From Escherichia coli (GTDB lineage: Bacteria > Pseudomonadota > Gammaproteobacteria > Enterobacterales > Enterobacteriaceae): DNA of 30,907 bases. The position numbers and the translations under genes were made by a program. Below are positions 21,545 to 22,075 of the stretch, piece after piece. The notes beneath the pieces were generated by a model that saw nothing but the letters and a program-made list of their open reading frames with translations, ran no database searches and was not told the origin of the DNA. The number at the start of each line of letters is the position of its first letter. Positions within the stretch are counted from its first letter, which is position 1. The stretch lies in NCBI RefSeq assembly GCF_003334385.1, contig NZ_QOWN01000055.1; one strand, 5' to 3'.

Positions 21545-21586
21545 GCTGTAAACAACATGGTCCTTGGTGGCCATGTTGTTTACAGC
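21545..21586 (+). terminator. Strong hairpin (16-bp perfect stem, 10-nt loop) 27 nt after the iutA stop; candidate terminator or recombination scar
   Basis: GCTGTAAACAACATGG-tccttggtgg-CCATGTTGTTTACAGC, followed by a direct repeat of TTGTTTACAGCCAGTAT; no U-tract. Confidence 0.4.
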
Positions 21587-22075
21587 CAGTATTGTTTACA
21601 GCCAGTATAATATACAGCCTTAACAAGATATTCCGTCTCCGGAATGGACTGTTCACCACTGAATAACATTATTTCTGTTTTATGGATCTTTGACTGAAAT
21701 TTATCGCATATCCTCATTTCATTGTCCGTCTGAAAACTAACCTTACAAGTAAGCGTCGTCTCAGCACCGTCTGGCAGATCCTGAAATTCCTGAGAGGATG
21801 ATCTGCGCCCAATATCCTGAGCCGGAACTTTGCTGCAATGAAGGCCAACGAAAAATGGGGGAGTATGTTATAGAGTACTTGCTACAGGGTAAAAAGAGGT
21901 ACCTGTCGCTGGTTCTCCGTTCAGTTTAACCGGGAGATTTTCTCCTGCGCCTGTCATAAAGTCCGGTAATGGAGATTGTTAATACGATGGTGCACGATGC
22001 ATTGTCGGTGCCCGGCCCGGAGGATGCCCCGTAACTACATACGGATCAGGGTTGGCAATATCGAATGGCAGGCTA

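Follow-up and report, generated by a model that had tools for sequence, protein, structure and literature searches.

A conserved stem-loop with a variable 16-nt tandem repeat at the 3' end of the aerobactin operon in Escherichia coli

Background

Intrinsic (Rho-independent) termination in E. coli normally requires a U-tract following the hairpin. A class of 3' ends to be compared with this was described by Dar & Sorek 2018 (PMC6061677), who mapped hundreds of E. coli 3' ends and reported that Rho-dependent transcripts end precisely at stable stem-loops. These stem-loops are characterized by reduced U content, the absence of an upstream A-tract and a mild downstream excess of C over G, and they protect the transcript against PNPase and RNase II (PMC6061677). 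Two other groups of elements are relevant to palindromes and repeats located near the ends of operons: the REP, BIME and ERIC palindromes, which are dispersed in tens to hundreds of copies, and the variable-number tandem repeats (VNTRs), whose copy number changes by slipped-strand mispairing. For the aerobactin loci, our literature search found no description of a hairpin downstream of the operon or of the 3' end of the transcript.

In this work, the 3' end of the aerobactin operon iucABCD-iutA was analyzed in a 30,907-nt stretch of E. coli DNA (contig NZ_QOWN01000055.1), hereafter called the window. An earlier note, made from the letters of the window, had pointed to a hairpin and a direct repeat just downstream of iutA and had offered three readings of them: the boundary or scar of a mobile element, a REP-like element, or an RNA stability element of the iuc transcript. 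Here, comparison with complete genomes, plasmids, metagenome contigs and orthologous loci of other Enterobacterales was combined with RNA folding. As a result, we report that the feature is a real, conserved and otherwise ordinary operon-terminal stem-loop, to which a small unstable tandem repeat is attached.

Results and discussion

A long stem-loop directly downstream of iutA

The gene for the ferric aerobactin receptor, iutA, is the final gene of iucABCD-iutA and occupies positions 19323..21518 of the plus strand. The open reading frame ends at 21518 with the stop codon at 21516-21518, and the name is taken from the RefSeq annotation (WP_001387241.1) of identical DNA in FORC_069 and UPEC-245U. 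A spacer of 26 nt (21519..21544, plus strand), which forms the beginning of the 3' UTR and is 73% identical to the ColV-type spacer, separates the stop codon from the hairpin. The perfect 16-bp inverted repeat that had been noticed just 3' of iutA was recovered by repeat search, with arms of 16 nt each at 21545-21560 and 21571-21586 that are 100% complementary and lie 10 nt apart. Folding extends the stem by the pairs U21561·G21570 and C21562-G21569. The resulting structure on the plus strand consists of an 18-nt 5' arm (21545..21562), whose outer 16 nt form perfect Watson-Crick pairs, a 6-nt loop CUUGGU (21563..21568) and a 3' arm (21569..21586).

The predicted energy of the hairpin is -28.3 kcal/mol, compared to -9.0 ± 2.4 kcal/mol for 200 dinucleotide shuffles, none of which was as good (z = -7.95; 0/200). 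Only 8 of the 18 stem pairs are GC, and the stem is thus AT-rich, yet strong. No family of Rfam 15 matches the hairpin at gathering thresholds. A permissive scan returned only miRNA-precursor-like matches of 14-21 bits against thresholds of 37-90, which were judged to be chance, and assignment to a known RNA family was rejected.

Distribution and genomic setting

A 202-nt query found the locus in 1036 of the 5426 complete E. coli genomes, at one site per genome. The two places per genome that are returned by a 73-nt query comprising the hairpin and the repeat are the self-match of the palindrome on the opposite strand at the same coordinates. In every region inspected (FORC_069, Nissle 1917, O145:H28 RM12761, plasmid pBCE049-1 and UPEC-245U), the match is located directly 3' of iutA; within the window, the hairpin motif is unique. 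The window belongs to the aerobactin-iha island, which is also present in EAEC 55989 and O104:H4, and its positions 19000 to 22000 are identical to UPEC-245U/190328. The hairpin is invariant in approximately 1000 E. coli genomes. A metagenome scan, which was anchored on the 3' end of iutA and not on the hairpin, yielded 66 contigs, 48 with the hairpin of the window (PAI type) and 18 with that of the ColV plasmids. Neither type shows any variation in the hairpin, although the iutA sequences linked to it in the PAI-type contigs diverge by as much as ~10%, and these 66 contigs added no further hairpin variants for the analysis of covariation.

The earlier note had proposed a search for the 42-nt hairpin sequence elsewhere. 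A second site in the genome was not found, the only one being that beside iutA, whereas other aerobactin loci, on ColV and Klebsiella plasmids, do carry a diverged version. The proposal of a REP-like element fails on this distribution. Similar to the REP, BIME and ERIC elements, the hairpin is a palindrome in a 3' intergenic region that could stabilize the upstream mRNA; in contrast to them, it has no dispersed copies, occupies a single locus per genome among the 5426 E. coli genomes, always beside iutA, and shares no sequence similarity with them. Since the palindrome is single-copy and linked to iutA, a REP/BIME-like origin was rejected.

Several additional observations concern the surroundings of the locus. 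Two groups of iutA alleles, represented by window positions 20000-21575 and by contigs L096, L097, L101 and others, diverge by approximately 10% in the 3'-terminal 1.5 kb of the gene. Both are followed by an identical hairpin and 3' flank, a pattern suggestive of recombination with a breakpoint close to the iutA stop codon. The repeat described below is present in one copy in each of the 17 contigs that make up the divergent group. Two contigs assigned to other taxa, JAIJJM010000012.1 (L011; Collinsella sp. MAG) and JAEYCB010000044.1 (L055; Bacillota MAG), contain the E. coli aerobactin locus with C-terminal IutA identities of 99% and 100%, respectively; one has the one-copy and the other the two-copy allele, and both are very likely mis-binned E. 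coli DNA. Approximately 1.3 kb 3' of the hairpin, between an IS3-like relic and an iha-like gene (24996-27086), the minus strand of the window contains a full-length match to the Rfam family Esr41 (EHEC sRNA 41) at 22914-22987 (108.6 bits versus a gathering threshold of 102, E = 1.7e-20), inside which there is a terminator-like site with a T7 tail (22946-22923, minus strand).

The pairing is kept in divergent aerobactin loci

The window and the ColV-type plasmid share a single block of 9.35 kb (12231-21578) with 93% identity, comprising shiF-iuc-iutA; the linkage of shiF to iucABCD-iutA is already known (PMC6918656). The first position of the block lies 9 nt past the stop codon of the shiF-like transporter gene, which is divergently oriented, and its last position falls within the hairpin, the final feature of the block. 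Further 3', the plasmid has no homology to the window. The ColV-type version is found on approximately 1440 plasmids of E. coli, Klebsiella and Salmonella. Over the 42 nt of the hairpin, the window is only ~64% identical to the ColV/Klebsiella and E. fergusonii versions. In the ColV type, the loop is changed at 6/10 positions and the stem block GTAAAC/GTTTAC is replaced by GATATC/GATATC, and the sequence folds in the same register at -19.0 kcal/mol. A third version, on an E. fergusonii plasmid, has the same fold at -17.3 kcal/mol.

Among these three distinct sequences, three pairs between the 3' arm and its partner are changed on both sides, from AU to UA, and 87% of the cells are paired, compared to 22-50% when the partners are slid by 1-3 columns. 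The covariation statistic is thin, with only three distinct variants and 10/500 column shuffles reaching the observed value, and the three AU/UA swaps could come from one event. The wobble pairs U·G (window type) and G·U (E. fergusonii) can form on the iutA-sense strand but not on its complement, which hints weakly at RNA, and not DNA, as the relevant molecule.

Just 3' of the aerobactin hairpin, the ColV-type plasmid contains a second perfect hairpin of 18 bp (GACATAATCTGTAGTCAG...CTGACTACAGATTATGTC; positions 2897-2947 of L006). It is ~88% identical, with one compensated pair, to a hairpin located directly after the stop codon of the RepFIB initiator in IncF plasmids lacking iutA (positions 979-1031 of the IncFIB plasmid L162). 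As judged by this match, the aerobactin module in ColV plasmids abuts RepFIB-flank-like DNA.

Stem-loops downstream of iutA in other Enterobacterales

A set of 80 iutA loci from other Enterobacterales was folded, and hairpins of -12 kcal/mol or stronger that start no more than 60 nt from the stop codon were counted. Of the 80 loci, 63 have such a hairpin, with a median stem of 10 pairs, and the locus thus generally has a strong stem-loop immediately 3' of iutA, irrespective of sequence. Some of the hairpins are canonical terminators with GC stems, such as those of Buttiauxella (CAGGCTGGCTAAAAACCAGCCTG followed by T5-6, within a T5-7 range) and Cronobacter (GGCCGCCGGGAGCGGCC followed by T7). 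Many other hairpins have GC stems and lack a T-run, for example those of Citrobacter koseri and of Salmonella arizonae and diarizonae, and in 31/63 the best 8-nt tail window contains no more than three T. With its 18 bp, the E. coli-type stem exceeds all others in the set and is longer than usual for terminators.

These data bear on whether the palindrome has any function at present. Compensated changes in palindromes can arise without selection through templated quasi-palindrome correction during replication. The hairpin might thus be a neutral or relic inverted repeat that corrects itself by intrastrand template switching, with the tandem repeat arising in the same replication-error hotspot. 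The three compensated pairs each amount to a simple AU/UA flip and distinguish only two lineages, the adjoining 16-nt unit is demonstrably unstable, and IS elements are found in or beside the hairpin with no obvious loss of the operon. In E. coli Ch1 (NZ_CP127316.1, positions 1688-2998 of L094), an ISL3-family IS sits exactly at the expected place of the hairpin next to a divergent iutA allele; since iutA is still annotated as intact in Ch1 and its relatives, the hairpin may be dispensable. On the other hand, the presence of a hairpin at the same position in the 63 orthologous loci of unrelated sequence points to a positional function, the stem has survived a sequence divergence of 36% together with the change of most of the loop, and it does not vary across the E. 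coli genomes. We therefore regard a palindrome without current function as improbable.

The ISL3-family element of Ch1, with a frameshifted transposase and imperfect inverted repeats at its termini (GGGCCTTCCC.../GGGTTTTCCC...), is flanked by TGATATAA and TGATATAC. Beyond the right flank, the sequence runs on as the window does from 21608, and a synthetic empty-site query found no uninterrupted allele of the Ch1 type in plasmids or E. coli genomes. In a two-copy metagenome contig (OGJK01001439.1; L143), an IS2-type end (TAGACTGGCCCCCTGAATC) cuts the second repeat copy after TTGTTTACAGCCA. Together, the IS2 of this contig and the ISL3 of Ch1 represent IS insertions within ~30 nt of the hairpin.

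A candidate 3'-terminal stem-loop of the aerobactin mRNA

The tail of the hairpin differs between the two main alleles of the locus. In the common single-copy allele, the stem is followed by a 3-nt non-U spacer, and the tail is CAGUAUAAUA (also given as CAGTATAATA), in which 3 of 8 nt are U. The same spacer is present in the duplicated allele of the window, whose tail CAGUAUUGUU contains five U among 8 nt. The statement of the earlier note that the hairpin has no U-tract is thus correct for the common, ancestral allele and needs correction for the allele of the window. A canonical U-tract directly after the stem is found in neither of them, the value of 5/8 being reached only after the spacer. 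An upstream A-tract is also absent, as seen from the sequence 5' of the hairpin (ACAAGGGTAT; the 10 nt in front of it read ACAAGGGUAU).

It is possible in principle that the hairpin acts as an atypical intrinsic terminator, in which the stable stem, alone or with the weak U-containing tail, releases RNA polymerase. It has the same position relative to the iutA stop codon as the canonical terminators of Buttiauxella, Cronobacter and Trabulsiella, in which a strong hairpin is likewise found, and a simple consensus scan flags the allele of the window as terminator-like (18 pairs, 8 GC, 5 T in 8). However, the stem of the common E. coli allele is nearly twice as long as in those terminators and lower in GC, its tail is U-poor, its stem is followed by the non-U spacer, and the U-richer tail is limited to the ~5% of loci that have the duplication. 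The lack of both a U-tract and an A-tract argues against a canonical intrinsic terminator, and we consider termination by the hairpin itself unlikely.

The features of the locus agree better with the stem-loops of the Dar & Sorek class (PMC6061677). A stable stem-loop stands directly 3' of the transcription unit (-28.3 kcal/mol, z = -7.95, 26 nt after the stop codon of the last gene). The combination of a U-poor tail and no upstream A-tract is found in the common allele, the duplicated allele being borderline. Downstream, the plus-strand interval 21580..21760 is an untranslated, G-poor stretch with more C than G, a candidate Rho-loading (rut-like) region proposed on the heuristic basis of its C/G ratio. 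In 78-nt windows over 21560-21760, this ratio is 1.15-1.69, which lies at the ~90th-95th percentile of the whole window (median 0.91, 95th percentile 1.63) and serves as a crude rut proxy; the G content is 13-17% across ~180 nt 3' of the hairpin. The locus differs from the typical members of the class in its 18-bp, AT-rich and longer stem and in the variable tandem repeat that overlaps the 3' arm, and it is a putative member of the Rho class.

Thus, the hairpin is probably the 3'-terminal stem-loop of the iucABCD-iutA mRNA. We infer an RNA-level function, Rho dependence and exonuclease protection, and Rho-dependent termination downstream, followed by exonucleolytic trimming back to a protective stem, appears more likely than pure intrinsic termination. 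Of the three readings offered by the earlier note, a putative element for termination or stability of the iuc transcript fits best with the position of the hairpin, the pairing kept despite sequence change, the hairpins of the orthologues and the anatomy of the Rho class.

In the proposed scheme, the Fur-regulated iucABCD-iutA mRNA would end with this hairpin as follows. RNA polymerase would pass the iutA stop codon, and the nascent RNA would fold into the 18-bp stem. Because the common allele has no U-tract, most polymerases would probably not be released at the hairpin. Rho would then load on the untranslated, G-poor RNA with more C than G just 3' of it and cause diffuse termination. PNPase and RNase II would subsequently shorten the 3' end as far as the base of the stem, at approximately 21586-21590, and the stem would prevent these 3'-to-5' exonucleases from degrading the operon mRNA any further. 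Hairpin-driven intrinsic termination might contribute to a minor degree, more so in the duplicated allele because of its more U-rich tail. Alternatively, a perfect helix of 18 bp might be a target of RNase III, which would destabilize the mRNA.

Two other elements were observed in the 3' flank. A small hairpin at 21630-21645 (ATTCCG-TCTC-CGGAAT) is terminator-like for the minus strand (tail ATCTTGTTAA), and every island-type locus as well as strain Ch1 has kept it. Directly 3' of the repeat, at 21606-21611, there is a perfect -10 hexamer TATAAT, which is also kept in the ColV-type flank (TCATATAATAC). A promoter created by the repeat at this hexamer was rejected, as there is no usable -35 element (the distance to TTGTTT is 8 or 24 nt) and the promoter scan calls none.

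A 16-nt tandem repeat of variable copy number

The direct repeat beside the hairpin consists of two tandem, 100% identical copies of the 16-nt unit TTGTTTACAGCCAGTA on the plus strand, at 21576..21591 and 21592..21607; the chance expectation for a 16-mer at no more than 3 mismatches is 0.14 per window. The 17-mer repeat of the earlier note corresponds to this unit plus the shared T at 21608, so that the repeat itself was confirmed, and the end of the feature, which had been placed at 21604, lies 3-4 nt further on, at 21607/8. The first 11 nt of copy 1 lie within the outer part of the hairpin 3' arm, and this copy is present in all PAI-type alleles. Copy 2 is the polymorphic extra one, and the inverted-repeat search showed that the 5' arm of the hairpin is able to pair with it as well. 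Next to it, at 21608..21623 (plus strand), a degenerate unit TAATATACAGCCTTAA can be read, which all PAI-type loci and strain Ch1 have retained. It is identical to the unit at 10/16 positions, the heptamer TACAGCC being in phase, and this points to an earlier duplication of similar type.

Among the complete E. coli genomes, two copies are present in 54-55 (~5% of loci) and a single copy in ~930-970, the second copy being missing in ~95% of genomes with the locus; a three-copy allele was not found in this set. Alignment confirmed the absence of the second copy in Nissle, O145:H28 and pBCE049-1. In strain SCPM-O-B-12142, which has the same island and the same IutA protein and differs from the window by 5 SNPs in 3 kb, there is also one copy. 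The 48 PAI-type metagenome contigs include 41 with one copy, six with two and one (L105) with three.

To compare backgrounds, flanking haplotypes were defined by 1.5 kb of iutA and 230 nt of downstream sequence, after reduction of the repeat to a single copy. Contigs L117 and L132 have an identical flanking haplotype with one and two copies, respectively. The haplotype of the window occurs with two copies in five sequences besides the window and with three copies in L105, and two-copy alleles are found on at least three backgrounds, including those of L106 and L124. A single origin of the duplication, as it could be read from the complete genomes, is contradicted by these metagenome haplotypes. 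Since one, two and three copies are found on identical flanking haplotypes, the repeat copy number has changed repeatedly, which may reflect either recurrent duplication or one duplication followed by frequent loss and recombination.

The locus resembles VNTRs with slipped-strand mispairing in having a perfect 16-nt unit in one to three head-to-tail copies on identical or near-identical flanks. It differs from them in that the repeat lies 3' of an operon, outside promoters and coding sequence, with no evident phase-variation switch, and shares nucleotides with one arm of a hairpin. As microhomology at the duplication junction is limited to 1 nt, the unit was probably first duplicated in a rare event that the neighbouring hairpin facilitated, the later changes from two copies to one and from two to three being ordinary slippage. 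A slippage event between the TACAGCC heptamers that the unit and its degenerate version have in phase was considered and rejected, as its predicted product differs from that observed. In the proposed scheme, the repeat would be a separate, DNA-level matter, gaining and losing copies (one, two or three) through replication slippage beside a strong hairpin-forming palindrome.

One could also suppose that the hairpin and the repeat with its one to three copies jointly form a mutable 3'-UTR element. Added units would lengthen the U-richer tail and give the 5' arm an alternative partner, and they could alter termination efficiency or iutA mRNA stability, and in this way tune expression of the aerobactin receptor or read-through into the downstream island between close strains, with the hairpin driving recurrent duplication. 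We regard this as very improbable. There is no sign of selection on copy number, the repeat lying outside any coding region or promoter and being present in one copy in 95% of loci, and we infer that the tandem repeat is probably neutral, without a selected function.

No evidence for a mobile-element boundary

The mobile-element reading holds that the hairpin and repeats are the end, scar or target site of an element carrying the aerobactin genes, or a DNA site for a recombinase or regulator. Island-type and plasmid-type loci do lose their homology right at the hairpin or shortly past it, the motif TTGTTTACAGC is repeated both inversely and directly with a spacing of 16 nt, as in arrays of sites for a DNA-binding protein, and IS elements cluster nearby, with IS629-like insertions at ~21662 and ~21753 in other strains. 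However, the breakpoints relative to the window differ between lineages: that of the ColV type maps to ~21578-21618, within or just after the 3' arm, and that of E. fergusonii p80 to ~21592-21605. Strain Ch1 shares the window sequence from 21608 to ~21735, i.e. more than 120 nt past the hairpin, and from this it follows that the ancestral locus reached past the hairpin.

Furthermore, no matching repeat was found at the other end of the shared block (window position 12231) or elsewhere in the window, and no second copy exists. A duplication of 16 nt is atypical for a target-site duplication, the hairpin matches no Rfam family, and the extra direct copy cannot be a required site because it is missing from 95% of loci. 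The IS3-like relic, to which the earlier note had referred in proposing a boundary or scar, is at least 300 nt away. With both an inverted-repeat partner and multiple copies absent, the end or excision scar of a transposon, IS or MITE was rejected, and we attach hardly any probability to the mobile-element reading as a whole.

Conclusions

The hairpin and repeat suggest no new mechanism, and the practical value of the analysis is modest: it defines the 3' end of a widely studied virulence operon, that of aerobactin. The polymorphic repeat of one to three copies had not been foreseen in the earlier note, and this 16-nt copy-number polymorphism could be used as a fine-scale typing marker for lineages of the aerobactin islands, such as those of EAEC 55989 and O104:H4. 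The 3' end of the operon is conserved between chromosomal islands and the ColV/Klebsiella virulence plasmids, and, in an operon spread by horizontal transfer, it provides a concrete natural candidate for a 3' end that is Rho-dependent and protected by a stem-loop.
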